The notes beneath the pieces are model-generated. The model was given only the letters and a program-made list of their open reading frames with translations, did no database searches and was not told where the DNA came from. The translations under genes and the position numbers were made by a program. Shown piece by piece: positions 3,608-64,000 of a stretch of 64,000 nt of DNA (its first letter is position 1; each line of letters begins with the position of its first letter). This DNA comes from Candidatus Levyibacteriota bacterium. Its GTDB lineage: Bacteria > Patescibacteriota > Microgenomatia > Levybacterales > UBA12049. The stretch lies in NCBI GenBank assembly GCA_043823085.1, contig JBDRBE010000003.1, positions 19,822 to 83,821 of the forward strand. The letters run 5' to 3'.

Positions 3608-4020
3608 AAGTAATTTTTAATTTGAAATTTGAAATTTTAAATCAAATAGAAATGTTTAAAAATTTAAATTTTAAAAATTCATTGAAAATTTAAAATTGAA
3701 AATTTAGATTTTACAATATGTATGAGTTGCCGGATATAAGAAATATTGATGTAAAGGGTAAAACTGTTTTTTTGCGAGCTGATTTAGATGTTCCGCTTGC
3801 GCAACCATCAACCCGCCTGCCAAAGCCTGGCACTGGCGGGCAGGCCATCAATAGACAACAAACAACCATAGAGGATGATACGAGATTGCAAGCCGGTTTT
3901 CCAACGGTGCAATATCTATTGGAGCATGGTGCAAAAGTGATAATCGGTGGGCATTTGGATAGACCAAAGGGAAGAGACGAAAGCCATAGTTTACAGCCAG
4001 TAGCAGTTTGGTTGCATGAA

Positions 4021-4072
4021 AATATCAAATATCACCCGTTCGGCAAGCTCAGGGCAAATATCAAAAATACAT
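4021..4072. repeat. Short interspersed repeat, family C copy 1 (caaatatcacccgttcggcaagctcagggcaaatatcaaaaata), in-frame in pgk
   Basis: The core CCGTTCGGCAAGCTCAGGGCAA recurs at 4167-4189 (pgk, different reading frame) and 47258-47306 (DNA ligase, third frame). Confidence 0.7.
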
Positions 4073-4166
4073 ATAAAAAATTAAAAATTAATGACTTTGA
4101 TAGGTGGAAGATAAATGATAACCTTTTTCTTTTGGAGAATTTGAGGTTTTATGAGGGGGAGGAGAA

Positions 4167-4189
4167 CCCTTCGACAAGCTCAGGGCAAG
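4167..4189. repeat. Family C copy 2 (ccttcgacaagctcagggcaag), in-frame in pgk
   Basis: Same core as 4035-4056 but translated in another frame (PSTSSGQE versus PFGKLRAN). Confidence 0.65.
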
Positions 4190-4646
4190 AATTTGTTAAA
4201 AAACTTGCATCTCTGGCTGATATTTACGTCAACGACGCTTTTGCCATGTGCCATAGAGATCATGCTTCAATGACAGGAATTACTCATAATCTCCCTCATT
4301 TTGCCGGACTGCATTTGCAAAAAGAGGTTGAGGTTTTAGGTTCGGTTTTAAAAGATCCAAAACGGCCTTTGGTTGCAATTATCGGCGGGAAAAAAATTGA
4401 AACAAAACTTCCTTTGGTTTTAAAGATGTATAATTTGGCTGATTATATTTTGGTTGGCGGAAAAATCGCCCAGGAAAAAGCATCGCTTGGGACTATCTGT
4501 CAGAGGGAAACTCACAAATGCGCAAATCTTGTGGTTGCCCAATTAAATAAAGATGGTAGCGATATTACAACTGGAGATTTAGAAAAATTTTTAGAGGTAA
4601 TTGAAAAAGCAAAAACAGTAGTTTGGAACGGACCCATGGGAATCAT

Positions 4647-4660
4647 AAATGGCAAATGGC
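4647..4660. repeat. 7-bp tandem duplication (AAATGGC)x2 causing the pgk frameshift
   Basis: Seen directly in the sequence: ggaatcataAAATGGCAAATGGCaaattgatcgg. Confidence 0.8.
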
Positions 4661-4910
4661 AAATTGATCGGAGATGATACGGAAATGGGGACGAAGAGGA
4701 TCGCAGAGGCGATTGTTAAAAGCGGGGCATATAGTGTAGTTGGCGGAGGAGATACTACTGAATTTTTAAAACGGCTTGGGATTTTTGATAAATTTGACTT
4801 TGTTTCAACCGGCGGGGGAGCAATGCTCTCCTTTTTAAGCGGCGAAAAATTACCGGGTTTGGAAGCATTGGCCTCTTGAAGGATTTTTTTAGAGAGTATA
4901 TACTCTAAAT

Positions 4911-5951
4911 ATGTTAAGAGTTGCGATAAATGGTTATGGAAGGATTGGGAGAGTTGCGCACCGGGTGATTTTGGAGAAACACGCAAGTGAAATAGAAGTT
5001 GTTGCTATCAACGCCGGATCGTCAACAGACATAAATGGTTGGATGTATCTTCTTAAATACGATACAGTCTATGGTCCGCTGTCTCACGATATCAAAAACC
5101 AAAGATCAAATATCAAAGATGCGATTGGAGATTTTATTATTGATGGAAAGCAAATTCCACTTTTTTCGCAAAAAGACCCAAGTCTTTTGCCATGGAAGGA
5201 TTTAAATGTTGATGTTGTTGTTGAATCGACCGGTGCTTTTCGGACAGAAGAAAAATTAAAAGCGCACATAAGCGCCGGAGCAAAAGCAGTTGTTCTTTCA
5301 GCGCCAGCTAAAGATCAAGTTTCAACTTATATTATTTCGGTTAATGCCAAAGATTATAAAGGCGAAAGTTTAGTCAGCAATACCTCTTGTACTACCAATT
5401 GCATTGCACCGGTTGCCAAAATTATACTTGAGAATTTTGGCATTGAAAAAGCCATGATGACTACGATTCACGGATATACATCGAATCAGCGCTTGCAGGA
5501 TGGGGGGCATAAAGATTATAGAAGAGGCCGCGCTGCCGCAGAAAATATTATTCCTACAACAACGGGTGCGACAAATGCGGCTGCAAAAACCATTCCAGAA
5601 TTGGAAGGAAAATTCAGCGGTCTTGCAATTAGAGTTCCGGTTGCTGTCGGTTCTCTCTCTGATTTCACATTTCTTCTAAAAAGGCAAACTTCAAAAGAAG
5701 AAATCAATGAAGTTTTTAAAAAGGCAGCGGAGGATCCAAATTACAAAGGAATCCTAGAAGTAACTCAAGATCCGATTGTTTCAAGTGATATTATCGGTAA
5801 TCCTCACTCTTCAATTGTCGATCTTTCGCTAACCCAAGTAGTCGGCGGGAATTTAGCCAAAGTTATTGCCTGGTATGACAATGAATGGGGGTATTCAAAC
5901 AGGCTGGTGGAAGAAGCAATAATGATAGGAAATAAAATTTCTAATTCCTAA
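4911..5951 (+). CDS. gap: glyceraldehyde-3-phosphate dehydrogenase, type I
   Basis: INGYGRIGR NAD-binding N-terminus, active-site SCTTNC, and the WYDNEWGYS C-terminal motif. Confidence 0.9.
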   Translation: MLRVAINGYGRIGRVAHRVILEKHASEIEVVAINAGSSTDINGWMYLLKYDTVYGPLSHDIKNQRSNIKDAIGDFIIDGKQIPLFSQKDPSLLPWKDLNVDVVVESTGAFRTEEKLKAHISAGAKAVVLSAPAKDQVSTYIISVNAKDYKGESLVSNTSCTTNCIAPVAKIILENFGIEKAMMTTIHGYTSNQRLQDGGHKDYRRGRAAAENIIPTTTGATNAAAKTIPELEGKFSGLAIRVPVAVGSLSDFTFLLKRQTSKEEINEVFKKAAEDPNYKGILEVTQDPIVSSDIIGNPHSSIVDLSLTQVVGGNLAKVIAWYDNEWGYSNRLVEEAIMIGNKISNS

Positions 5952-5993
5952 TCTCTAAATCCTAAACAAATCCCAATTATCAAAATCTAGAAT

Positions 5994-6587
5994 ATGGAAA
6001 ATCCCAAAGGACTGCCCGATATCAGAATTATTACGATTTCCGGGAGAATTGCTTCCGGCGCTACAACGCTGGCAAAGCATCTGGCTCAAACTTTAAAATG
6101 GAAGCATGTTGAAGGAGGAGATGTTTTTTGGGAGGAAGTAAGGAAGAAAATGGAGCTTTCTCCAAAAGATACACACCTGCGGCCGGATACTGAAGACAAA
6201 ATATTTGACGAACAGTTAATAAAAACATTGAAAGAAGAAAAACAAATTGTTTTGGAAACCAAATTAGCGGCTTTTAATGCTCAAGGAATTACAGGTGTTT
6301 TTAAAATTCTTGCTGTCTGTGATGACAAAAACGAAGGGGATCAAACAGATGTTAGGGTGGACAGGTTAGTGAATAGGGAAGGGGTAACGGTAGAAGAAGC
6401 GAAAAAAGAAATACTTGAAAGAGAAAAAAATGATCTTGAAAAGTGGCGAAGAATGTATGCCAAAGACGATCATAGCTGGGTTTACTGGGATAAAAAATAT
6501 TACGATTTAGTAGTTAATACTTTCAATCATTCTCCTGAAGAAACTCTGGAAATTGCACTAAAAGGGATTGGATATAAATCCGCATAA
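5994..6587 (+). CDS. P-loop nucleotide kinase, probably archaeal-type cytidylate kinase
   Basis: IITISGRIASGATTLAKHLAQTLKWKHVEGGDVF resembles the archaeal CMK N-terminus (ITISGxPGSGKTTVAKxLAExLGxxHVSAGxxFR). Length is 197 aa. Confidence 0.5.
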   Translation: MENPKGLPDIRIITISGRIASGATTLAKHLAQTLKWKHVEGGDVFWEEVRKKMELSPKDTHLRPDTEDKIFDEQLIKTLKEEKQIVLETKLAAFNAQGITGVFKILAVCDDKNEGDQTDVRVDRLVNREGVTVEEAKKEILEREKNDLEKWRRMYAKDDHSWVYWDKKYYDLVVNTFNHSPEETLEIALKGIGYKSA

Positions 6588-14544: not shown

Positions 14545-14548
14545 AACT

Positions 14549-14599
14549 AGCGTATAGCGTATAGCGTATAGCGTATAGCGTATAGCGTATAGCGTATAG
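14549..14599. repeat. tandem heptamer (GCGTATA)x7 immediately after the nrdJ stop
   Basis: Seen directly: tagcgtatagcgtatagcgtatagcgtatagcgtatagcgtatag. This unit is the reverse complement of the CTATACGC family found elsewhere in the window. Confidence 0.9.
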
Positions 14600-14644
14600 T
14601 TGTAGTTGTAATTAAAAATTAATTCAGTTAAAATGTTTGCGTGG

Positions 14645-14803
14645 GTAATCACCGTGACCTGCTTTTGCTGAAAGCTTCAGCAAGGCAAGAAATCGGTGGC
14701 AGTGCCGCTACTGTATAGCCAGAAAACCACGCAAAATAACCCCCGTGGGGGTTCCCGAGCAGGAGTTATTATATCCTTCTTGGGAACAAGAGGGATTTTT
14801 TTT
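14645..14803 (+). promoter_or_regulatory. cobalamin (AdoCbl) riboswitch upstream of the PduO-type adenosyltransferase
   Basis: GGTGGCAGTGCCGCTACTGTATAGCCAGAAAACCAC matches the conserved CCGCcACTGTaa core and B12 box AGCCAGgAaACC. A hairpin plus T-run (gggaac...gggattttttttATG) follows. Confidence 0.55.
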
Positions 14804-15370
14804 ATGGTTCGACAAGTTCACCACAAGGTGAAAATTTATACAAAGACCGGGGATAAAGGAAAAACTTCGCTTTTGGGCGGAAAGAGAGTGCCAAAAGATG
14901 ATTTAAGAATTGAAGTTATTGGAGAAATTGATGAACTGAATTCGGTGATTGGAATTGTGATAGCGCAAATCTCAAAGCGCAAATCTCAAAACCAAAACTT
15001 AAAGTTCAAAAATGAACTAATAAATATTCAAAAAGATCTTTTTGGAATTGGGTCATCATTGTCAGGTTTTTTAACTAAACGCTACGTGCTAGACGCTAGA
15101 CGCTTGGAAAAGATGATAGGCGAGTTATCGAAAGAGTTGCCCGTATTAAAGAGTTTTATTCTTCCCGGCGGGGGAGAAAGCGGTTCTTTTTTGCATTTGG
15201 CAAGAGCGGTTTGCCGAAGAGCGGAAAGAAGAACGGTTGGACTTTCTAAAAAAGAAATTGTCGATAAAAGTATCATTATGTATTTAAATCGTCTTTCGGA
15301 TTTATTATTTACAATGGCAAGATATATAAATTTTAAAGAAAATAAAAAAGAAATAATTTGGCCTTCCTAA
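14804..15370 (+). CDS. PduO-type ATP:cob(I)alamin adenosyltransferase
   Basis: MVRQVHHKVKIYTKTGDKGKTSLLGGKRVPKDDLRIEVIGEIDELNS matches the PduO N-terminal signature (KIYTKTGDKGxTSL...). The ATG at 14804 follows the riboswitch terminator; the ORF-track start at 14696 lies inside the riboswitch. Confidence 0.8.
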   Translation: MVRQVHHKVKIYTKTGDKGKTSLLGGKRVPKDDLRIEVIGEIDELNSVIGIVIAQISKRKSQNQNLKFKNELINIQKDLFGIGSSLSGFLTKRYVLDARRLEKMIGELSKELPVLKSFILPGGGESGSFLHLARAVCRRAERRTVGLSKKEIVDKSIIMYLNRLSDLLFTMARYINFKENKKEIIWPS

Positions 15371-15375
15371 GCTTA

Positions 15376-15594
15376 CCGTTCGCCTTTTCAATTCTATTCG
15401 AATACGGCTCACGGAGCGCTTTAAGGCGGGTAAGGTTAAAAAAATTTTATTGAAAGTAAAAATTGGGTGAAATCGGTGTGATTCCGATGCTGTGCCGCAA
15501 CTGTTAAAGCCAGATCCCCATTATCCCGCCAAACGGGATAGATAAGTCTTCCGAGTAGAAGCAATATTTCTCCTCGGAAACGAGGAGTTTTTTT
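15376..15594 (+). promoter_or_regulatory. second cobalamin riboswitch, upstream of an unknown 387-aa protein
   Basis: GGGTGAAATCGGTGTGATTCCGATGCTGTGCCGCAACTGTTAAAGCCAGATCCCC is a very good match to the B12 element core (GGTGAAAxCC...GCcGCAACTGTaa...AGCCAGGATaCC). The terminator hairpin ctcctcggaaacgaggagttttttt ends 2 nt before the ATG. Confidence 0.65.
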
Positions 15595-16758
15595 ATGGGA
15601 AAAGAAGTGTTTTTTGATAGAATAACAGCCAAAAATGTTGGTTTTGATTTACCGCAAGAAGCAGTTAATGTGTCAAGGGCCTTGACAAAATTTCCTTTTT
15701 TAAGAAAAGAAATCATTAAAACTACCGCTCGTCAAATCAGGACTTACGAGTCAGAAACCCTTAAAGATAGTGTCGTGTCTTATTATCCATGTTTTCTGCA
15801 TTCTGTTGGAGGAAAAACGAAATTATTCTCTTCGGATATCCCTCATGAACAATTTTTAATGGAGTCTCAAATAGACTCGATTGAAAGAGATGGTGCGCCG
15901 TTAAATGGTTTTAGAAAATTGCAAGAAGAATTAGGCCGATTTAGCGGGAAAAGATTATTCTTATGGATTAGTCCAAAAGGAAGCGCTGGCAATAAGGGAA
16001 TTTATAAAAAAATTAATTATGGTTATCATCAAATTTATATTGGGACAGCTGAAGACAGAAAAACCCAAGCCTATGCCCTAAAGTCTGATATTGATGAAAG
16101 GGTACTAGCCAGTTGGATTAATCAAGTTTCGAATGGAAAGACTAGCATTAAGGGAGAGGATTCTCTGGAATTTCTCTTTAATCCGGTCGTAGTCCCTTTT
16201 TTTTCTTCGACATATTCTTCCGATGAAATGATAGCTTTCGCCCTGGTTAGATTAAAAAATATTTTGGCAAAAAGCAAGCAGTCGGCATTTTATAAAGATG
16301 TAGAAGTTGAAAACTTACCGGATTCAATGATAGATACAAAAATAGAACAAGAAAGAGATGTTGAAAGAATAGCTAGGGAACTTGATATTCAGCTCTCTAT
16401 GGATAAATGGTTAGGTTATGAAGAAGCTAGACGAGCAATTGGAGGGCAAATGTATGTTTTGTATGAAAGTTATGCTAATAAAAAGGGAGAATTTGAATTA
16501 AAAGGTTGTTCGGGAGGAACAAAAACCACCAAAAATCTTTTTGAGAATGAAATAGATTTATTAATTGAAAATATTTTTTCTACAGCATTCAGAATTAAAA
16601 ATTCTACAACGGATGAAGAATATAAGTTTGATAAAATTGATGATTGTGTAAAATGTGGAGCAAAGAATGTTGCCGTTGGTCCTTGTAAGATCTGCCAGCC
16701 ATGTGACAAAGCATTAAGAGCTAAAAGCGCCGCAAAATATTCCTTCTCCTTGAACTAA
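15595..16758 (+). CDS. hypothetical protein under B12-riboswitch control, with a C-terminal Cys-rich zinc-ribbon-like motif
   Basis: 387-aa ORF with no family I recognise. The C-terminus is CVKCGAKNVAVGPCKICQPCDKA. Confidence 0.55.
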   Translation: MGKEVFFDRITAKNVGFDLPQEAVNVSRALTKFPFLRKEIIKTTARQIRTYESETLKDSVVSYYPCFLHSVGGKTKLFSSDIPHEQFLMESQIDSIERDGAPLNGFRKLQEELGRFSGKRLFLWISPKGSAGNKGIYKKINYGYHQIYIGTAEDRKTQAYALKSDIDERVLASWINQVSNGKTSIKGEDSLEFLFNPVVVPFFSSTYSSDEMIAFALVRLKNILAKSKQSAFYKDVEVENLPDSMIDTKIEQERDVERIARELDIQLSMDKWLGYEEARRAIGGQMYVLYESYANKKGEFELKGCSGGTKTTKNLFENEIDLLIENIFSTAFRIKNSTTDEEYKFDKIDDCVKCGAKNVAVGPCKICQPCDKALRAKSAAKYSFSLN

Positions 16759-19684: not shown

Positions 19685-19692
19685 CACCTTGA

Positions 19693-19800
19693 GGGTAGAA
19701 GATAGAAGTTTGATGATAGATCTTGAAGTTTGAAAATGGAAGTTAGATTCTATCTTCTAGCTTCTAACTTCAAATTCTAGCTTCTAGTTTCCAGCGTCAA
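19693..19800. repeat. complex imperfect palindrome / inverted repeats in the spacer after the T4CP-like gene
   Basis: TAGAAGATAGAAGTTTGA...TTCTATCTTCTAGCTTCTAACTTC. The arms are reverse complements. Confidence 0.5.
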
Positions 19801-20968: not shown

Positions 20969-20984
20969 TTGAGCGTAGATATTT

Positions 20985-21056
20985 GCGTCCGTAGCTCAGT
21001 GGTAGAGCGCTACTCTTATAAAGTAGATGTCCTTGGTTCGAATCCAAGCGGACGCA
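20985..21056 (+). tRNA. tRNA-Ile, anticodon UAU
   Basis: Cloverleaf folded by hand: acceptor GCGTCCG/CGGACGC, D-arm GCTC..GAGC, anticodon stem CTACT/AGTAG with loop CTTATAA, and T-arm CTTGG-TTCGAAT-CCAAG. Confidence 0.7.
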
Positions 21057-21131
21057 CCCATTCGTCGCTTCGCTCCTCAGGGCAAGCTTGACTTTACAAA
21101 GGCCTTAATCTTTCGCTAAGATAGACGAAGC

Positions 21132-25399: not shown

Positions 25400-26752
25400 T
25401 TGATGAACAATCAATTCAAAAATAAAAAAATTGCCATTGTCGGGCTTGGAATAGAGGGTTTATCAAGCGCAAAGTTTTTTATTGAAAAGCGAGCAGAAGT
25501 TACAATTCTGGACAAAAAAGAAAAAACCGAATTAAACCTAGACACTCCGTTTGTTTTTGGTAAAAATTATCTGGATAATCTTGACTGTTTCGATGTCATT
25601 GTTAGAAGTCCGGGTGTTAAAGTTGATCTTCCAAATCTTCAAAAAGCAAAAGAAAAAGGAACGGTTATCACTTCTCAAATAAAACTTTTTTTTGATCTTT
25701 GTCCCTGCAAAATCATCGGCGTTACCGGAACAAAAGGAAAAGGAACGACCGCGTCGTTAATTTACGAAATGTTTAAAAAACAAACCAGAAATGCGTATTT
25801 GGGTGGTAATATAGGACTGCCTCCATTGGATTTTTTGGACAAATTAAATTCTCACTCAATTGTAGTTTTGGAACTCTCAAGTTTCCAACTCCAAGACCTT
25901 AAAAAGAGCCCTCATATTGCCGTAATTCTTATGACTTTAAGTGAACATCTTGATTATCATAAAGATGTTGAAGAATATGTCAGCGCAAAAAGAAATATTG
26001 TTAAATTTCAAAAGACTTCTGACTTTGCGATTTTAAATATTGATTATCCGGCAAGCCGCGAATCGGATATCCATACTCAGGGAAAAGTATTTTATATTAG
26101 TCGGGAAGGGGAGGTTGGTGAAGGATGTTTTGTGAAAAAAGGGGAAATAAAATTAAAAATTAAAAATGAGGAATTAAAAATTATTGATACTAAAGAAATT
26201 TTATTACCCGGGGAGCATAATTTTGAAAATGTTTGCGCGGCGGTTATGGCGGTTGCACTTTGTAATGTCTCGAAAGAGAATATCATTAAAGTCCTTAAAA
26301 CCTTTAAGGGCTTGGAGCATCGTTTGGAGCTTGTTGGAGAGGTTGGCGGCGTTAAATATTACGACGATTCGTTTTCGACCACTCCCGAAACTGCCATTGC
26401 CGCAATACTGGCTTTTAAAAATCCGGAGATTTTAATTTTGGGCGGGTCAAGTAAAAATTCAGATTTTAGCGAGTTAGGAAAAGTTATTAGTAATGCAAAA
26501 AATATCAAGGCGATTATTGGAATCGGTCTTGAATGGAAAAGAATTAAGTCAACTATACGCCATACGCTATACGCCATACGCTATATTGAAGGATTAAAGA
26601 ATATGCATTCAATTATTCAAAAAGCTTCAGAAATAGCGGAGGTGGGGGATATTGTTCTTCTGTCGCCGGCATGTGCCAGTTTTGATATGTTTAAGAACTA
26701 CAAGGACAGGGGAAGGCAGTTTAGAGAAGAAGTGGAGAACCTCAAGAAATAA
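25400..26752 (+). CDS. murD: UDP-N-acetylmuramoylalanine--D-glutamate ligase
   Basis: Rossmann N-terminus KIAIVGLGIEG and the Mur ligase P-loop IGVTGTKGKGTTASLIYEM. There is an in-frame CTATACGC-family repeat at 26548-26590. Confidence 0.9.
   Translation: MMNNQFKNKKIAIVGLGIEGLSSAKFFIEKRAEVTILDKKEKTELNLDTPFVFGKNYLDNLDCFDVIVRSPGVKVDLPNLQKAKEKGTVITSQIKLFFDLCPCKIIGVTGTKGKGTTASLIYEMFKKQTRNAYLGGNIGLPPLDFLDKLNSHSIVVLELSSFQLQDLKKSPHIAVILMTLSEHLDYHKDVEEYVSAKRNIVKFQKTSDFAILNIDYPASRESDIHTQGKVFYISREGEVGEGCFVKKGEIKLKIKNEELKIIDTKEILLPGEHNFENVCAAVMAVALCNVSKENIIKVLKTFKGLEHRLELVGEVGGVKYYDDSFSTTPETAIAAILAFKNPEILILGGSSKNSDFSELGKVISNAKNIKAIIGIGLEWKRIKSTIRHTLYAIRYIEGLKNMHSIIQKASEIAEVGDIVLLSPACASFDMFKNYKDRGRQFREEVENLKK
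26548..26590. repeat. CTATACGC/CCATACGC repeat inserted in-frame in murD
   Basis: aagtcaactatacgccatacgctatacgccatacgctatattg, encoding STIRHTLYAIRYI. Confidence 0.75.
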
Positions 26753-39376: not shown

Positions 39377-40641
39377 AAGTTGCGTTGGTGCATGATTATA
39401 TTAAAGAATATGGAGGCGCCGAAAGAGTGCTTGAGGCGTTGCATGAGATTTGGCCGGAGGCGCCCATTTTTACTTCGGTTTATCTGCCTGAATTTTTAGG
39501 ACCGCACAGGGAAAGGTTTAACGGATGGAAAATTAAAACTTCAATTCTTCAAAGTTTACCATTGAAAGCAAAATTAATAAGCCCTTTTCGAATTATCGCG
39601 CCGCTAATCTTTCGGTCATTTGATTTCAGCGATTATGATGTAGTAATTGTTTCTGCAACCGGAGCATATACACCGAACATGATACAACTCAAAACCACAA
39701 CTCAAAGCTCAAAAATAACTGACCATACGCCATGCGCCATACGCCATGCGCCAGTTCATGTTTGCTATTGTCATACGCCGCCAAGATATCTTTATGGATT
39801 TGCTACGGCAAGGGATTGGAAAAAGAATATTATTTTTAGGGTTTTGGGGGAAATTGCCAATGCATTTTTGCGGCAAATTGATTTTAAATCGGCGCAAAAC
39901 GTTGATTATTTTATCGCCAACTCAAAAAACGTGGCGGGAAGAATTAAAAAGTTCTATAAAAGAGATTCGACAGTTATTTATCCCCCCGTAGTTGGCGCTG
40001 AGGTCGGACATACAAATTTTTTTGTTCCGCAGTTGTCTCACGAAGAATCTCAAGGTGTTCATCAGCGCATTGGCGCTCGACAAGATGCGAACAGAAAAAA
40101 TTTGATATCCTCCCCGCGCCAATACTTTTTAGCCGGAGGAAGATTGGCAAGGCCAAAACACATTGATTTGATTGTTCAAGCCTGCGCTGAACTAAACCTT
40201 CCTCTGAAAATTTTTGGGAAGGGATTCGCGGGATACGATCAACAATTAAAAAATCAAAAATCAAAAATCAAAAATATAACTCAAAAGTCAAAAGTTGAAT
40301 TTTTGGGAGAAGTGAGCGACCAGGAGAAGTTGGAGTTGATGAAAAATGCCAAGGCTTACATTTTTGCCTCGGAAGATGAGGATTTTGGTATCACACCGGT
40401 TGAAGCAATGAGTGTTGGTACGCCGGTTGTTGCTTACCGTTCGGGAGGCGTTGTTGAATCGGTTGTTGATGGAAAAACAGGAATATTTTTTGATAAACTA
40501 TCAATAGAGTCTTTGGCGGAGGCAATAAGGCGCTTAAGCAGTTTAGGGGACTTAAGTGAAAATTGCCGCAATCAGGCCAAAAAATTTAGTAAAGAAAGAT
40601 TTAAAAAAGAAATCGTAGAATTTATTAAATCAAAAATTTAA
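39373..40641 (+). CDS. family GT4 glycosyltransferase carrying three in-frame repeat insertions
   Basis: N-terminus VALVHDYIKEYGGAERV and C-terminal EDFGITPVEAMSVGTPVVAYRSGGVVESV (E-x7-E region). Inserts lie at 39685-39755, 39998-40121 and 40248-40276. Confidence 0.8.
   Translation: MKVALVHDYIKEYGGAERVLEALHEIWPEAPIFTSVYLPEFLGPHRERFNGWKIKTSILQSLPLKAKLISPFRIIAPLIFRSFDFSDYDVVIVSATGAYTPNMIQLKTTTQSSKITDHTPCAIRHAPVHVCYCHTPPRYLYGFATARDWKKNIIFRVLGEIANAFLRQIDFKSAQNVDYFIANSKNVAGRIKKFYKRDSTVIYPPVVGAEVGHTNFFVPQLSHEESQGVHQRIGARQDANRKNLISSPRQYFLAGGRLARPKHIDLIVQACAELNLPLKIFGKGFAGYDQQLKNQKSKIKNITQKSKVEFLGEVSDQEKLELMKNAKAYIFASEDEDFGITPVEAMSVGTPVVAYRSGGVVESVVDGKTGIFFDKLSIESLAEAIRRLSSLGDLSENCRNQAKKFSKERFKKEIVEFIKSKI
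39685..39755. repeat. AT-rich plus CCATACGC/CCATGCGC repeat insertion in-frame in the GT4 gene
   Basis: caactcaaaaccacaactcaaagctcaaaaataactgaccatacgccatgcgccatacgccatgcgcc. Confidence 0.7.
39998..40121. repeat. ~125-bp RPE-like element with terminal inverted repeats (family B copy 1), inserted in-frame inside the GT4 CDS
   Basis: aggtcggacatacaaatttttttgttccgcag...gatgcgaacagaaaaaatttgatatcctccccgcgcca. It is about 85% identical to 50285-50409 (intergenic). The termini CAAATTTTTTTGTTCCGCAG and CTGCGAACAGAAAAAATTTG are reverse complements. Confidence 0.8.
40248..40276. repeat. (TCAAAAA)x4 tandem repeat in-frame in the GT4 gene
   Basis: aaaaatcaaaaatcaaaaatcaaaaatat. Confidence 0.85.
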
Positions 40642-48729: not shown

Positions 48730-48777
48730 ATGCAGTTTGTTGCAGATCTTCACGTTCACTCTAAATATTCCCGCGCC
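48730..48777 (+). other. synonymously recoded duplicate of codons 1-16 of the downstream EndoQ-like gene
   Basis: atgcagtttgttgcagatcttcacgttcactctaaatattcccgcgcc gives MQFVADLHVHSKYSRA, versus the gene start MQLVADLHVHSKYSRA at 48876. There are 15 nucleotide differences, 14 of them synonymous, including TCT versus AGT for Ser. Confidence 0.6.
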
Positions 48778-48875
48778 CCAGATAACCTTAGCATGCGCCT
48801 TTTCAATACTATATCGTATACGGCTTATGCTGCGGTTTTAACGGGGCAGCTTTTTAATAGTGCTAAAATAGTCAT

Positions 48876-50267
48876 ATGCAACTAGTGGCAGATTTACATG
48901 TACATAGTAAATACTCACGCGCGGTATCACCGGACATGGTTTTGCCAATCATGGCAAAATGGGCAGTTAAAAAAGGAATTGATATTTTGGCAACTGCCGA
49001 CTGGACACATCCTCTTTGGTTTAGGGAAATAAAAGCTAACCTAGAAGAATCCAGTATTGGACTCTTCAAGCTCAAATCTTCCTCCTACTCTAAAGCTTCG
49101 GAGGACAAGCAAAACAAAACTCATTTTATTCTCTCCACTGAAATTTCGAGCATTTACTCGCAGGGTGGGCAAGTGCGGAGAGTTCATAATTTAATTTTAT
49201 CGCCGGGCTTTGAAACTTGCGAAAAAATCAATCAGGAATTGGTTAAACGCGGGTGTAATCTTTCCTCCGACGGACGGCCGATTGTTGGAATTTCTTCAAA
49301 AAATCTTTTGGAAATGGTTTTATCAATTGACAAAAACGCCTTATTTATTCCTTGCCATGTTTGGACGCCGTGGTTTTCTTTGTATGGTTCAAAATCAGGC
49401 TTTGATTCTATAGAAGAATGTTTTGGTGAGTATGTAAATAAAATTTATGCCGTTGAGACAGGACTTTCAAGCGACCCCCAAATGAACTGGCGGATAAAAG
49501 AATTGGAAAACCGTTCAATTGTTTCCTCGTCTGATTCCCATTCGCCGGCAAAGATGGGGAGGGAAGCGACCATATTCACAGTTCAAAATTCAAAATTCAA
49601 AAATCAAAATGACAGTTCAAAATTCAAAATTACATATGATGATTTAGTAGCTGCTATAAAAAGAGATCCCGAAGGTAATTTAAAGATTGGTTATACTATT
49701 GAGTTCTATCCGGAGGAGGGGAAATACCATTATACGGGGCATAGAAATTGTAAAGTTGTACAGAGTCCGGAGGAAACAAATAAGAATGGAGAGATTTGTC
49801 CGGTTTGCAAAAAACCCCTGACAGTGGGAGTGATGCACCGTGTTGAACAACTTGCTCAACAACAATCAATAAACAACTATCGACAATCAACAGATAAATT
49901 TGGAGTTACTTGGGTTGAAGATTCCAGAGGTATTCATCCGCCGTTTGTAAAATTGGTGCCTTTAAATGAAATAATTGCCGAGAGTTTAGCATCGACCGTG
50001 TCTAGCGTCAAAGTAAAAAGCGTTTTTGATCAAATGTGTGGTGAATTCGGTTCGGAAATAAAAATTCTTTTGACAACTCCAATTCAAGATTTGGAAAAAG
50101 CCCAAGGGCCAAAAATTGCCGAGGGAGTTGCCAAAGTCAGGAAGAGTGATATTGTGATTGAACCCGGATTTGATGGAGAATATGGGAAGGTAAAGATATG
50201 GGGAGAAAAAAAGTCAGCAGAGAATAGAAATGGGGAGAAAGAAGAGGCGCAGTTGGGATTATTTTAA
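48876..50267 (+). CDS. PHP-domain nuclease, endonuclease Q-like (TIGR00375 family)
   Basis: N-terminal DLHVHSKYSRAVS PHP motif, further His/Asp metal ligands (PCHVWTPWFS, SSDSHSP), an internal CxxC zinc finger (ICPVCKKPLTVGVMHRVEQLA) and C-terminal PGFDGEYGKVKI. The architecture matches archaeal EndoQ. An in-frame AT-rich tandem repeat lies at 49580-49632. Confidence 0.55.
   Translation: MQLVADLHVHSKYSRAVSPDMVLPIMAKWAVKKGIDILATADWTHPLWFREIKANLEESSIGLFKLKSSSYSKASEDKQNKTHFILSTEISSIYSQGGQVRRVHNLILSPGFETCEKINQELVKRGCNLSSDGRPIVGISSKNLLEMVLSIDKNALFIPCHVWTPWFSLYGSKSGFDSIEECFGEYVNKIYAVETGLSSDPQMNWRIKELENRSIVSSSDSHSPAKMGREATIFTVQNSKFKNQNDSSKFKITYDDLVAAIKRDPEGNLKIGYTIEFYPEEGKYHYTGHRNCKVVQSPEETNKNGEICPVCKKPLTVGVMHRVEQLAQQQSINNYRQSTDKFGVTWVEDSRGIHPPFVKLVPLNEIIAESLASTVSSVKVKSVFDQMCGEFGSEIKILLTTPIQDLEKAQGPKIAEGVAKVRKSDIVIEPGFDGEYGKVKIWGEKKSAENRNGEKEEAQLGLF
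49580..49632. repeat. AT-rich tandem repeat (TTCAAAA) in-frame in the EndoQ-like gene
   Basis: cagttcaaaattcaaaattcaaaaatcaaaatgacagttcaaaattcaaaatt. Confidence 0.85.
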
Positions 50268-52604: not shown

Positions 52605-52740
52605 GGAATTCTTGAAGTGAGAAGTAAGATATCTTTGAATTTGATTTCTTGATATCTTGATATTTTGAATTCTAGATATCAAGACGTCAAAGATTCAAGT
52701 TCAAGAATATCAGAGGTATCTCACATCAAAAAGTTCTAAT
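52605..52740. repeat. MITE-like element, family A copy 2
   Basis: It starts gaattcttgaagtgagaagtaagatatc and ends gaggtatctcacatcaaaaagttctaat. The termini TTGAAGTGAGA...GATATC and GATATCTCAC..TCAA are reverse complements. Confidence 0.7.
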
Positions 52741-55776: not shown

Positions 55777-56526
55777 ATGAGATTACAAAATAAAGTTGCA
55801 ATTGTGACAGGAGGGGGAAGCGGTATTGGCCGGGGAATCGCCATACTTTTTGCCAAAGAAGGAGCAAAAGTTGTGGTTTGCGGAAGAAGACCGGAGGCGT
55901 TGGAAGAGACGGTTAATTTGATTAAACAAAATGGGGGAGAAGCAGTTTTAATTGTTTGTGATGTTTCAAACGCAGAGCAAGTCAACGCTTTAGTAAGTCA
56001 AACAGTCCAACAATTTGGCCGTTTGGATATTTTGGTAAATAATGCCGGAGTATATATTGCTCGTGATGCTCTCTCTGCAACAGAAGAGGAGTGGAATACC
56101 ACCATGTCTATTGATCTTAAAGGTGTTTGGCTTTGCTCGAAAGCGGCAATTCCGCAAATGATAAATGGCGGAGGAGGTAAAATTGTAAACATTGCTTCAA
56201 TTGCAGGACTGGTTGGTTTTGCAGGTTCTGCTTTTTATTGTGCGGCAAAAGGAGCGGTTGTTAATTTAACCCGCGAAATGGCTCTGGACTACGCGTTAAA
56301 GCATATTAATGTCAATGCGATTGCGCCGGGAATTATTGATACGGACATGACAAAACCCTTTTTGCAAGACGAGCAAGCAAAGAAAAGTTTTTTGGATCAA
56401 ACGCCAGTTGGCAGAGTTGGAACACCCGAGGACATTGCTTTTGCCGCAGTTTATCTTGCCTCAAACGAGTCTGATTTTGTTACAGGTCATACCTTGGTTG
56501 TCGATGGGGGATGGACAGCAAAATAG
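55777..56526 (+). CDS. SDR family oxidoreductase (FabG-like)
   Basis: TGGGSGIGRG cofactor motif, NNAG, and catalytic YxxxK (YCAAK). Confidence 0.85.
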   Translation: MRLQNKVAIVTGGGSGIGRGIAILFAKEGAKVVVCGRRPEALEETVNLIKQNGGEAVLIVCDVSNAEQVNALVSQTVQQFGRLDILVNNAGVYIARDALSATEEEWNTTMSIDLKGVWLCSKAAIPQMINGGGGKIVNIASIAGLVGFAGSAFYCAAKGAVVNLTREMALDYALKHINVNAIAPGIIDTDMTKPFLQDEQAKKSFLDQTPVGRVGTPEDIAFAAVYLASNESDFVTGHTLVVDGGWTAK

Positions 56527-56623
56527 CCGCCATTGCTCAATTGCTACATTGTTTCATTGCTAGCAATCGAACAATAGAACAATCTAACAATCGCTTCTTT
56601 TCTGGTGTATAATACTACAAATT

Positions 56624-59226: not shown

Positions 59227-59553
59227 ATGGCAGAAGTAATTATTACCGATCAAAATTTCGAATCAGAAGTTATTAAATCTGACATGCCGGTTCTTGTGGA
59301 TTTTTGGGCGCCGTGGTGCGGGCCATGCCGGATTGTCGGTCCGATTATCGAAGAATTGGCAAAAGAATATGAGGGAAAAGTTAAAATCGGAAAATTAAAT
59401 GTTGACGAAAATTCCGATACTGCGACAAAATATGCGGTGATGAGTATTCCGACTCTTCTTATCTTCAAAAAAGGAAGTCCTTTTAAAACCATGGTCGGCG
59501 CTCTGGCAAAAGAAAATATTAAAAAGGAAATCGATTCAGTAATTAGCGTATAG
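59227..59553 (+). CDS. trxA: thioredoxin
   Basis: Active site WAPWCGPCR. Confidence 0.92.
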
Positions 59554-59620
59554 GGTATAGGGGATAGCGTATAGTTTCCGTTTTAACTATATGCTATACG
59601 CCATTTGCTATACGCTGTTT
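59551..59620. repeat. long hairpin built from GCGTATAG/CTATACGC units between trxA and trxB
   Basis: gcgtatagggtataggggatagcgtatag...ctatatgctatacgccatttgctatacgc. The arms are reverse complements. It may act as a terminator or attenuator. Confidence 0.65.
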
Positions 59621-59625
59621 TTATT

Positions 59626-60567
59626 ATGTATGATGTCATAATTATTGGAAGCGGTCCAGCGGGACTCACTGCTGCAATTTATACCACCCGGGCAAATCTT
59701 AAAACTTTAATTATTGCCGGAAGCCGTTGGGGCGGGCAGTTAATGTTAACTGCTTTAGTTGAAAATTTTCCGGGATTTCCGCAGGGAATTAATGGTCAGG
59801 ATTTAATGGCGGCGATGCGAAAACAGGCCGAGCATTTTGGCGCGGAAATTATAGAAACCGATTTTACCCGCCTTCGCCCCTTCGACTCCGCTCAGGGCTT
59901 CGGCGGGCAAGGCAAAAGTGGCGGATTATTTAAAGTCACAGCCGGCGGGAAAGATTATCAGAGTAAATCAATAATCATTGCAACAGGTGCCGACACAAAA
60001 TGGCTGGGAGTTCGTGGTGAAAAAGAATTAATCGGCCGCGGTGTTTCGACCTGCGCTCCCTGCGACGCGCCGTTTTTTAAAAACAAAAATGTCATTGTGG
60101 TTGGAGGAGGCGATAGTGCCATGGAAGAGGCGCTGGTTTTAAGCGGTTTTGCCAATTCGGTCACTATTGTTCATAGGCGCAATTTGTTCCGTGCAAGCAA
60201 GATAATGATTGGAAAAGTAAAAGAGAATAAAAAAATAAAATTTCTTTTTGACTCAAAAATTGTGGAAGTTTTGGGGAAGGGAAGAGTAAGTGGCGTAAAA
60301 ATTGAAAATGTTAAAACAGGAAAAGTTTCCAAAATGCCGATTGACGGAGTTTTTGTTGCCATTGGTCATATGCCCAATTCATCAGTTTTTAAAAATATTA
60401 ATAAAGACAAAAATGGATATATCAAAGCTTATGAAAATACAAAAACAAATATCGAAGGCGTTTTTGTCGCCGGCGATGTTTATGATCGGCGGTATAAACA
60501 GGCAATCACCGCCGCAGGTTTTGGCTGCCAGGCCGCATTAGATGTAGAAAGATGGTTACGCGGTTGA
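59626..60567 (+). CDS. trxB: thioredoxin-disulfide reductase
   Basis: FAD motif IIIGSGPAGLTAA, redox CAPCDAPFF, and NADPH motif VVGGGDSAMEEA. It contains an in-frame family D insert (59866-59925). Confidence 0.9.
   Translation: MYDVIIIGSGPAGLTAAIYTTRANLKTLIIAGSRWGGQLMLTALVENFPGFPQGINGQDLMAAMRKQAEHFGAEIIETDFTRLRPFDSAQGFGGQGKSGGLFKVTAGGKDYQSKSIIIATGADTKWLGVRGEKELIGRGVSTCAPCDAPFFKNKNVIVVGGGDSAMEEALVLSGFANSVTIVHRRNLFRASKIMIGKVKENKKIKFLFDSKIVEVLGKGRVSGVKIENVKTGKVSKMPIDGVFVAIGHMPNSSVFKNINKDKNGYIKAYENTKTNIEGVFVAGDVYDRRYKQAITAAGFGCQAALDVERWLRG
59866..59925. repeat. family D element in-frame in trxB
   Basis: cccgccttcgccccttcgactccgctcagggcttcggcgggcaaggcaaaagtggcgg, encoding RLRPFDSAQGFGGQGKSGG. 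Confidence 0.65.
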
Positions 60568-61411: not shown

Positions 61412-61485
61412 GGGCTCGTAGTTCAGCAGGCTAGAACACTTCATTTGCAATGAAGAGGTAGGCGGTTCGAGTCCGCCCGAGTCCA
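61412..61485 (+). tRNA. tRNA-Cys, anticodon GCA
   Basis: Acceptor GGGCTCG/CGAGTCC, D-arm, anticodon stem CTTCA/TGAAG with loop TTTGCAA, and T-arm GGCGG-TTCGAGT-CCGCC. Confidence 0.8.
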
Positions 61486-61496
61486 CATGAATTATG

Positions 61497-61598
61497 GGCA
61501 AAGATAACGGGATCAACGAACTTGTAACTGCTCGCTAAGGCTTGCAGACAATTTCGGGACATCGCGAAGGTCGAGAGTTCGAATCTCTTCCGGTCCAC
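61497..61598 (+). other. tRNA-like element (clean T-arm GAGAG-TTCGAAT-CTCTT plus acceptor-like CCGGTCC-A-CCCA) with no canonical 5' half
   Basis: No complementary 5' acceptor strand (GG[AG][CT][CT]GG) and no D or anticodon arm were found by hand in the preceding 100 nt. Confidence 0.25.
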
Positions 61599-62014
61599 CC
61601 ATTCGACTCTCCGCCAGTTGGCGGATCGCTCAGGGCAAGCAGGATTTTCGTTGATTAGTGCCTAGCGCTGTCTCAATGACGAGACCGCTAGACACTAGTC
61701 AATTAAGACTAGATGGGATTCCGCCTAGCGGCGGAATCTTTGACCCCGCTAGAAACTTACTTGCTCGCAAGGTTTACATCCTTGCCTCGCAAGAGCGTTT
61801 CTATAAGGGTCTGCGTCGCCCGCCACAAATTTGGGTGGGTGTTAAAAATGTACGTCTGAATTAAAACAGAAGTTTTAAATTTATTGAAACTTTTCTGTAA
61901 AGAAATTTGGGCGGGCTCCTTGAAAAGTGAAGAGAAACAAGCCCCATAGAATCTTTCTTCTCGACACGTCAAACGTGCCTCGAAGAGCGATTTGACGGGG
62001 CAAGCGTCTTTAAG

Positions 62015-64000
<1,986 letters not shown>

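Follow-up and report, generated by a model that had tools for sequence, protein, structure and literature searches.

The 64-kb window, by which we mean the whole stretch of DNA analysed here, comes from Candidatus Levyibacteriota, to which NCBI assigns proteins identical to its MurD and GT4, and which is a Microgenomates branch of the CPR/Patescibacteria. Nearly all of its genes lie on the + strand and GC skew was positive in 31/32 2-kb bins, reminiscent of a closed Microgenomates genome for which a disparity in strand composition has been reported (PMC7143001). Four nucleotides after the stop codon of nrdJ, a direct array begins that was resolved by TRF at 14548-14599 as (TAGCGTA)x7.4 with 100% matches. 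A previous inspection of this DNA from its letters alone (the sequence-only reading) had described a tandem array after nrdJ, and its perfect period of 7 shows that array to be real. It is located upstream of an AdoCbl-II-like aptamer (14625-14737) and a cobalamin adenosyltransferase gene.

Two aptamers resembling the AdoCbl-II (B12) riboswitch were observed in this region, both adjoining the B12-dependent nrdJ. The one directly 3' of (TAGCGTA)7 and 5' of the cobalamin adenosyltransferase gene scored 34.6 bits, just under the gathering score. The other (15452-15525), upstream of the open reading frame at 15595-16758, scored 37.0 bits, above the gathering score.

Units related to the complement of TAGCGTA, which we write as CTATACG, were also found in frame within protein genes, as had been claimed for murD and for a GT4 glycosyltransferase gene. 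The murD block (26553-26585, + strand) reads CTATACG CCATACG CTATACG CCATACG CTATA and is translated as KSTIRHTLYAIRYIEG, read as IRHTLYAIRY. The GT4 block (39723-39753, + strand) consists of CCATACG and CCATGCG in alternation (CCATACG CCATGCG CCATACG CCATGCG CCA, x2.2), is translated as DHTPCAIRHAPVHV, read as HTPCAIRHAP, and is situated in a hypervariable loop of the enzyme. Both blocks have a perfect 14-nt period, which suggests recent two-unit duplications. Both are also in the CTATACG orientation, which is stop-free and gives LYAIRYT (CTA TAC GCT ATA CGC TAT ACG), while the complement orientation, as read from the sequence, carries TAG in all three frames. A further in-frame array, CTAAACG CTACGTG CTAGACG CTAGACG at 15076-15106 (+ strand) of the cobalamin adenosyltransferase gene, is a probable member of the same family and its weakest one, being short and holding 2.4 perfect copies.

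In the spacer between trxA and trxB, inverted heptamer arrays form the hairpin that the sequence-only reading had noticed there (59544-59616, + strand; arms at 59544-59574 and 59587-59616). The 5' arm reads TAGCGTA TAGGGTA TAGGGGA TAGCGTA TAG and the 3' arm, after the loop, CTATATG CTATACG CCATTTG CTATACG CT. Folding gave -35.3 kcal/mol with a z of -6.4. The array's second TAG serves as the stop codon of trxA. Downstream of the hairpin come TTTTTATT, which is kept before trxB in relatives, and then the ATG of trxB. A consensus terminator scan of 59300-59800 flagged nothing, a null that is uninformative because the loop and mismatched stem of this hairpin lie outside the rules of the scan.

The remaining copy lies in the 23S rRNA gene. 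When the initial 1.7 kb of the 23S gene was aligned to the bacterial LSU model of Rfam, extra sequence appeared at three positions: 21 nt for 3 near position 165, 107 nt for 5 near 284, and, within the loop of a hairpin spanning model positions 573-600, about 94 nt. The last of these, at 62709-62822 (+ strand), corresponds to E. coli about 541-552 in the Rfam LSU and E. coli alignments, that is, to the tip of helix 25. It contains the hairpin insert that had been proposed for this gene (arms at 62729-62760 and 62769-62800) within a conserved outer stem. The proposal had named a variable helix as the expected position, and the alignments indeed put the insert, which is extra relative to both the bacterial LSU model and E. 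coli, at an insertion-tolerant site. The segment 62700-62830 folds as one rod (-76.1 kcal/mol, z -9.1), the inner part of which is made of 5-bp stems (ATGGC/GCTAT) with 2x2 internal loops every 7 nt. Five core positions of the units are conserved and paired, and the other two are different in each unit, so modelled, the insert looks like an old array that may have been kept as a helix.

A second heptamer hairpin was found in the same gene at 62307-62427 (+ strand; E. coli about 273-284), where 107 nt replace 5. It consists of inverted GACAGAA/TTCTGTY arrays and folds at -52 kcal/mol (z -5.6). E. coli 23S rRNA tolerates insertions at I4-I6 (261-275) and I10 (542-550) (Yokoyama and Suzuki 2008, PMC2441807), and in the E. 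coli alignment both heptamer hairpins coincide with these sites. The same two sites are occupied by ES5 and ES7 in eukaryotes (PMC2441807; PMC9561286), and helix 25 belongs, with helices 9 and 45, to the three classical locations of intervening sequences in 23S rRNA (PMC4990558). Tsurumaki et al. report insertions of at least 100 nt in 77% of CPR 23S genes, which they mostly presume to be introns, with repeats unmentioned. We rejected a group I/II intron reading of the two inserts, because no intron RNA family reached its gathering score in the window and both inserts (94 and 107 nt) are roughly 100-nt simple hairpins.

Several features of the surrounding RNA genes were noted in passing. In the region 61412-64000 the 23S gene is preceded by tRNA-Ala only. 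Because the 62 kb upstream of it contain no 16S gene, the rRNA genes appear to be unlinked. The order trxB - dTDP-sugar isomerase - tRNA-Ala - 23S is kept in several relatives. A tRNA-Ile whose anticodon, TAT (UAU), is uncommon in bacteria lies at 20984-21060, where a tRNA is predicted by ARAGORN as well as by Rfam.

When written in the CTATACG orientation, the eight family arms aligned in one register, C[CT]A[TG]NNG, with the unit consensus CYATRCG. The occurrences of CTATACGC and GCGTATAG thus belong to one unit family, and their relatedness follows from a common 7-nt unit in a common register. Together with the extra 23S sequence described above, this means that neither of the two outcomes named by the sequence-only reading as refuting it was observed. 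The unit is present at six or seven dispersed loci within the 64-kb window. Counting both strands, there are 14 copies of the octamer CTATACGC, where dinucleotide-preserving shuffles predict 0.46 and none reached 14. The sequence-only reading had spoken of one element family; this holds for the shared unit and its register but not in the sense of copies of a discrete element, since among the eight arms there were no shared ends, flanking duplications or full-length consensus, only the 7-nt unit was common to them, and the arrays held from 2.4 to 7.4 units. The trxA-trxB and 23S hairpins folded better than shuffles, but the array after nrdJ did not, nor did a motif at 48800-48825 that had been counted as a further family member. 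We rejected the latter, which has no tandem heptamers and gave no two-unit match at up to 2 mismatches.

The rejected motif sits in a remnant of the EndoQ-like gene, a diverged second copy of its first 16 codons. This gene start (MQxVADLHVHSKYSRA) is duplicated at 48730-48777 versus 48876-48923, 146 nt upstream, with about 75% nucleotide identity and in a different frame, so that a gene-start remnant lies inside what had been taken for a spacer.

For the family as a whole, the idea that its members are unrelated chance repeats or assembly artefacts is refuted and can be given next to no credence. Chance would have to account for the octamer excess and for the common register of all arms. As for artefacts, the murD and trxA-trxB copies recur unchanged in independent Logan contigs, with no difference in copy number from the window, and L126, which comes from a separate sample, carries this unit at the corresponding place in murD. 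What speaks for some artefact is that the copy number of an array can differ between assemblies, as described below for PGK, so that exact counts in metagenome-assembled genomes (MAGs) are not fully reliable.

The CTATACG arrays are accompanied by many others of the same period. A count of perfect arrays in the 64-kb window gave nine at period 7 and none at periods 4-6 and 8-13, with 0.0 expected. A looser criterion yielded 30 approximate period-7 arrays of many different units, among them AAAACTC, AAAAATC, AAAATTC, AAAATTG, GACAGAA, AAGTGAG and ACGCTAT; the perfect-run test is the cleaner of the two because the looser criterion is not comparable at short periods. In terms of density, the window holds 4.7 arrays per 10 kb at period 7 versus 0.3 at period 8, and TRF also reported period 7 or 14 at 26553, 39723, 59544 and 62769. 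Since this period-7 excess involves many units, the CTATACG family is a single instance of a heptamer phenomenon that is general here. Mapping to the open reading frames placed about 16 of the 30 arrays inside Pfam-supported protein genes and four in the 23S, with the rest in spacers. The array-bearing genes are housekeeping genes, those for PGK, GAPDH, PBP2, MurD, a 5'-3' exonuclease, the GT4 enzyme, NAD(P)H-hydrate dehydratase, the EndoQ-like protein and peptidyl-tRNA hydrolase. About half of the window arrays are therefore coding, and the predominantly intergenic location that characterizes LSSR and STRR repeats was not found here. Two spacer palindromes, at 52628-52711 and 56515-56608, are built of inverted arrays of 8-nt units (GATATCTT; CATTGCTA/CAATCGAA), which means that repeat-built hairpins are not strictly confined to period 7.

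Comparison with relatives indicated how widely the phenomenon extends. The density of heptamer arrays dropped with distance from the window genome, from its 4.7 per 10 kb to 2.6 where the TrxB identity of the relative was at least 63%, and to 0.4-1.0 in more distant ones; L134, which is without the rRNA inserts, had no heptamer arrays in its 8 kb. Arrays of the CTATACG type themselves are nearly confined to the window genome and L126, with three tandem-like matches in 601 kb of relatives. The closest relative found, L126, is a distant one (72% MurD identity).

Whether the in-frame blocks are insertions was examined against homologues of murD and GT4. The murD linker had equal length in all homologues compared, so the murD block is a unit replacement at a heptamer hot spot and not an insertion. 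At this site the DNA of L126, a different sample, reads CTATACG CTATACG CTAAACG CTATTCC, that of L128 is (AAATTTC)x4, and L127, which is syntenic with the window, has a degenerate CAAAxTC array. Because the murD array is common to the window and L126 at only 72% MurD identity, some arrays must be old and not fast-changing. The GT4 loop comprises about 3 residues in minimal homologues, while elsewhere it is filled by other peptides of heptamer origin (KFKVQNSKFKI, KFKISNLKL) or by inserts of unrelated sequence; judged by its peptide, the loop NHSPLAISHKP of P0198 is possibly a decayed copy of the CTATACG family. Homologues of MurD and GT4 from Levybacteria and Microgenomates showed other in-frame inserts at variable sites as well (for example ...SFPRKRES...SGMT..., ...SSRLTSFART... 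and ...HPELVSG...MPKQVRHD...), and in the alignments these look like translated dispersed palindromic repeats.

A metagenome scan with TrxB returned 80 loci. Long hairpins of TAGAAGG/CTATCTT-type heptamers occupy this spacer in L130, L141 and L143, whose arrays have the TAG phase of the window array in common; the spacers of L133 and L139 contain other units, and those of L134, L135 and L137 are without an array, with an ordinary hairpin in its place in L134. The window itself carries a spacer hairpin of inverted TAGAAGA/TTCTATC arrays at 19691-19776 (+ strand), of the same unit family as the trxA-trxB spacers of relatives. Hairpins of this family were seen in L130 at about 5870-5995 and in L141 and L143 upstream of trxB, so unit families are common to lineages yet placed at different loci.

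In six of the loci from the TrxB scan, the 23S gene was present downstream of trxB. Between the same conserved flanks, the helix-25 region measured 47 nt in L134, which has no insert, and 136-182 nt in L130, L131, L138, L141 and the window. The inner hairpins of these relatives are made of AAAATCA/TTTTGAA (L130), AGTCATT (L138), AACAxxT/GGTTAC (L141) and TTAAGTC-like units (L131), all within the conserved outer stem, and the extension is sporadic among relatives. At the ES5-equivalent site, about 125 nt were found in L131 and about 485 nt in L141, and none in L130, L134 or L138. Since the permissive sites of relatives hold other units or none, the unit sequence turns over while the site persists. 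As judged from these orthologous sequences, the murD linker, the GT4 loop, the trxA-trxB spacer and helix 25 are permissive hot spots with unit turnover.

These comparisons bear on the proposal that selection maintains the unit for a function wherever it occurs, whether as a single-stranded heptamer binding site, as part of a terminator, or as a three-frame stop module of the form (TAGNNNN)n. Direct repeats of heptamers have been suggested as targets of cold-shock proteins (PMC4679880). A selected motif would also agree with an array that supplies the trxA stop codon, with a hairpin followed by the conserved TTTTTATT, and with a TAG phase common to L130, L141 and L143. Yet none of these roles makes sense inside the two enzymes and the rRNA helix that carry the unit, relatives have unrelated units or no array at the same sites, the terminator scan flagged nothing around the spacer hairpin, and, as described below, scrambled heptamers form arrays about as often as the real one. 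We consider a selected motif improbable.

A difference in copy number was seen in the PGK gene (3718-4879 in the window), which is split into two open reading frames exactly at (ATGGCAA)x2 (4647-4664, + strand); the array causes a frameshift, and one or four copies would restore the frame, four of them adding 7 aa. Comparison with Logan contigs identified L400 (SRR27458547), positions 1-45 of which start inside this array with at least four copies and continue into the same unique flank; in all other respects this contig matches the window exactly. Two assemblies of one population are thus at least 14 nt apart in the length of a heptamer array, owing either to population heterogeneity or to collapse by the MAG assembler, and the exact copy numbers of arrays in the MAG may be unreliable. 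At about 3679 and 16860, too, Logan contigs stop within arrays, which is weaker evidence because such ends are also expected from 31-mers common to several loci.

When one genome per species was scanned for CYATRCG x3, at least 120 loci in many phyla were detected. Among the other arrays in the loci listed, period 7 again dominated, with 90 arrays as against 22 for period 6 and 19 for period 8. Of the 120 listed arrays, 18 were accompanied by an inverted partner no more than 110 nt away, compared with 1 of 120 in a reversed-sequence null. Among the matches listed (L001-L120), 15 of the 18 paired arrays had the topology 5'-CGTATAG...CTATACG-3', which is also that of both window hairpins; the two possible topologies amount to the same duplex, which gives no reason for such a bias. 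In viral contigs the real unit was found at 38 loci and three composition-matched scrambled heptamers at 12, 104 and 36. The scrambled heptamers thus arise at comparable rates, and we rejected the notion that CTATACG is universally special; arrays are common whatever the heptamer, in line with what has been reported for LSSRs (Mrazek et al. 2007, as summarised in PMC4679880).

The sharing of one unit between loci raises the question of copy-and-paste dispersal, either by a very small mobile repeat, for which the small dispersed repeats of cyanobacteria and REP doublets (REPINs) are candidate likenesses, or by ectopic conversion or template switching between heptamer arrays, in which conversion overwrites the old unit. 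Such a process would explain why CTATACG occurs at six or seven loci in 64 kb but gave three tandem-like matches in 601 kb of relatives, and why units in the murD linker were replaced at constant length. It would also fit the recurrence of a hairpin (doublet) layout at 59544-59616, at 62729-62800 and in the listed arrays of the wider scan, where it exceeded the null, and the appearance of the TAGAAGA family at 19691-19776 in the window and in the trxA-trxB spacer in relatives. A mobile repeat should nevertheless have left conserved ends, flanking duplications or a full-length consensus, whereas the 7-nt unit alone is common to the copies and its number is variable. In addition, no transposase, reverse transcriptase or RAYT was present among the about 57 open reading frames of the window, in which the sole recombinase is Xer-like and syntenic in relatives, and units of different families have no homology to prime conversion. 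On balance we regard active dispersal as unlikely, though not negligibly so.

We favor instead the interpretation that the CTATACG family probably represents heptanucleotide repeats of the STRR/LSSR type that change in 7-nt steps and are filtered by selection. Under this slippage interpretation, misaligned strands at replication would create arrays and lengthen or shorten them by 7 or 14 nt at a time, a mechanism that we infer, and the arrays would persist only where additional sequence is harmless. Spacers would be one kind of permissive site. Surface loops and linkers of proteins would be another, provided that the orientation is stop-free and the length a multiple of 3 nt. The tips of insertion-tolerant rRNA helices would be a third, where the survivors would be inverted arrays that fold into a helix.

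Several observations go against this interpretation. The CTATACG arrays themselves showed no difference in copy number, their murD and trxA-trxB copies being the same in Logan contigs, and the murD array held in common with L126 speaks for some arrays being old. The window has a GC content of 38%, and local seeding predicts locus-specific units rather than one GC-rich unit at six or seven loci; the presence of one unit at six or more loci within 64 kb is not explained by slippage alone. The constant-length replacement of units in murD, and partly in helix 25, is unexpected unless selection on length is strong. Finally, about half of the arrays are coding, as against the mostly intergenic pattern reported for such repeats. 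A more far-reaching possibility, which we hold to be doubtful, is that a clade-specific engine of 7-nt repeats builds protein loops as well as 23S extensions at the ES5 and ES7 sites, and homogenises the units in trans. Such an engine might make direct arrays in spacers and proteins and inverted ones in RNA, by means of a trans-acting template or of copying from array to array. The sharing of a unit between multiple loci supports it and nothing beyond that does; if it were true, it would be a concrete, observable route for the growth of rRNA expansion segments.

Whichever process is at work, heptanucleotide repeats are a long-known yet unexplained trait of some bacterial genomes, and this CPR genome offers compact test material, with the same sites bearing different units in sister lineages and empty in others. 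The copy number of at least one array, that in PGK, differs between assemblies of one population, and helix extensions at the ES5 and ES7 sites of rRNA can be assembled from inverted simple repeats, so the repeat-built 23S inserts bear on the origin of intervening sequences and of expansion segments. In practical terms, heptamer arrays can frameshift MAG genes, as in PGK, and inflate apparent insertions in CPR proteins and rRNA.

Among known systems, REPINs, MITEs and the small dispersed repeats (SDRs) of Nostoc resemble the CTATACG family in being short dispersed repeats that are often paired as spacer hairpins (Bertels and Rainey 2011, PMC3116915). They differ in that the window copies have variable unit number and lack a fixed length, conserved ends and target-site duplications, and in that no cognate transposase is encoded in the window; the defining features of REPINs and MITEs, namely their ends and length, are thus absent from the family. 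Elhai and colleagues reportedly described in 2008 that Nostoc SDRs occur in association with heptamer arrays and sometimes break up conserved genes.

By analogy, the 23S copy resembles a helix-25 extension of the intervening sequence or expansion segment kind. In the intervening sequences of helix 25 the tetraloop is replaced by an extended stem-loop that is removed by RNase III (PMC4990558). As in Salmonella, Helicobacter, Campylobacter and Coxiella (PMC4990558), a terminal loop has been turned into a stem-loop of about 100 nt that is sporadic among relatives, and the long predicted double-stranded stem of helix 25 is a plausible RNase III substrate by the same analogy. In contrast to those intervening sequences, the inner part of the window insert is made of inverted heptamer arrays with a lineage-dependent unit, and no open reading frame lies inside it. 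With ES5L and ES7L the window hairpins share their positions (E. coli about 273-284 and about 541-552), but they are bacterial, short (about 95-110 nt), simple rods and repeat-built.

The closest likeness is with the STRR/LSSR repeats. The sequence-only reading had called a repeat family that is found in protein genes, an rRNA gene and spacers unusual, which is true of bacteria generally, although the heptanucleotide LSSR/STRR class has already been described (PMC4679880). In most genomes, heptanucleotide repeats are reported to outnumber all other classes of LSSR (Mrazek et al. 2007, as cited in PMC4679880), and the TAACTGA heptamer is dispersed, by a mechanism that is not known, in genomes of scattered phyla including Beggiatoaceae, cyanobacteria and Bacteroidetes (MacGregor 2015, PMC4679880). 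An STRR has been reported in the gene for RNase P RNA (Vioque 1997). The window shares with these repeats a 7-nt head-to-tail unit, an excess of period 7, seen here across 64 kb, one unit at many dispersed loci mixed with other heptamer units, occasional stop-free arrays in open reading frames, and arrays in a structured RNA gene. It differs in its host, a member of the CPR, and in its units, in having about half of its arrays in conserved protein genes, in its inverted arrays that form 23S helix extensions, and in the documented turnover of units at orthologous sites. We therefore describe the family as STRR-like and not as STRR sensu stricto, because the host is not a cyanobacterium and the units are other than STRR1-3. 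No paper on heptamer repeats in CPR/Patescibacteria was found in the literature searched. Heptamer arrays as such are a known class, from which the host phylum, the units, the inverted arrays in 23S rRNA and the site-wise turnover set this case apart.
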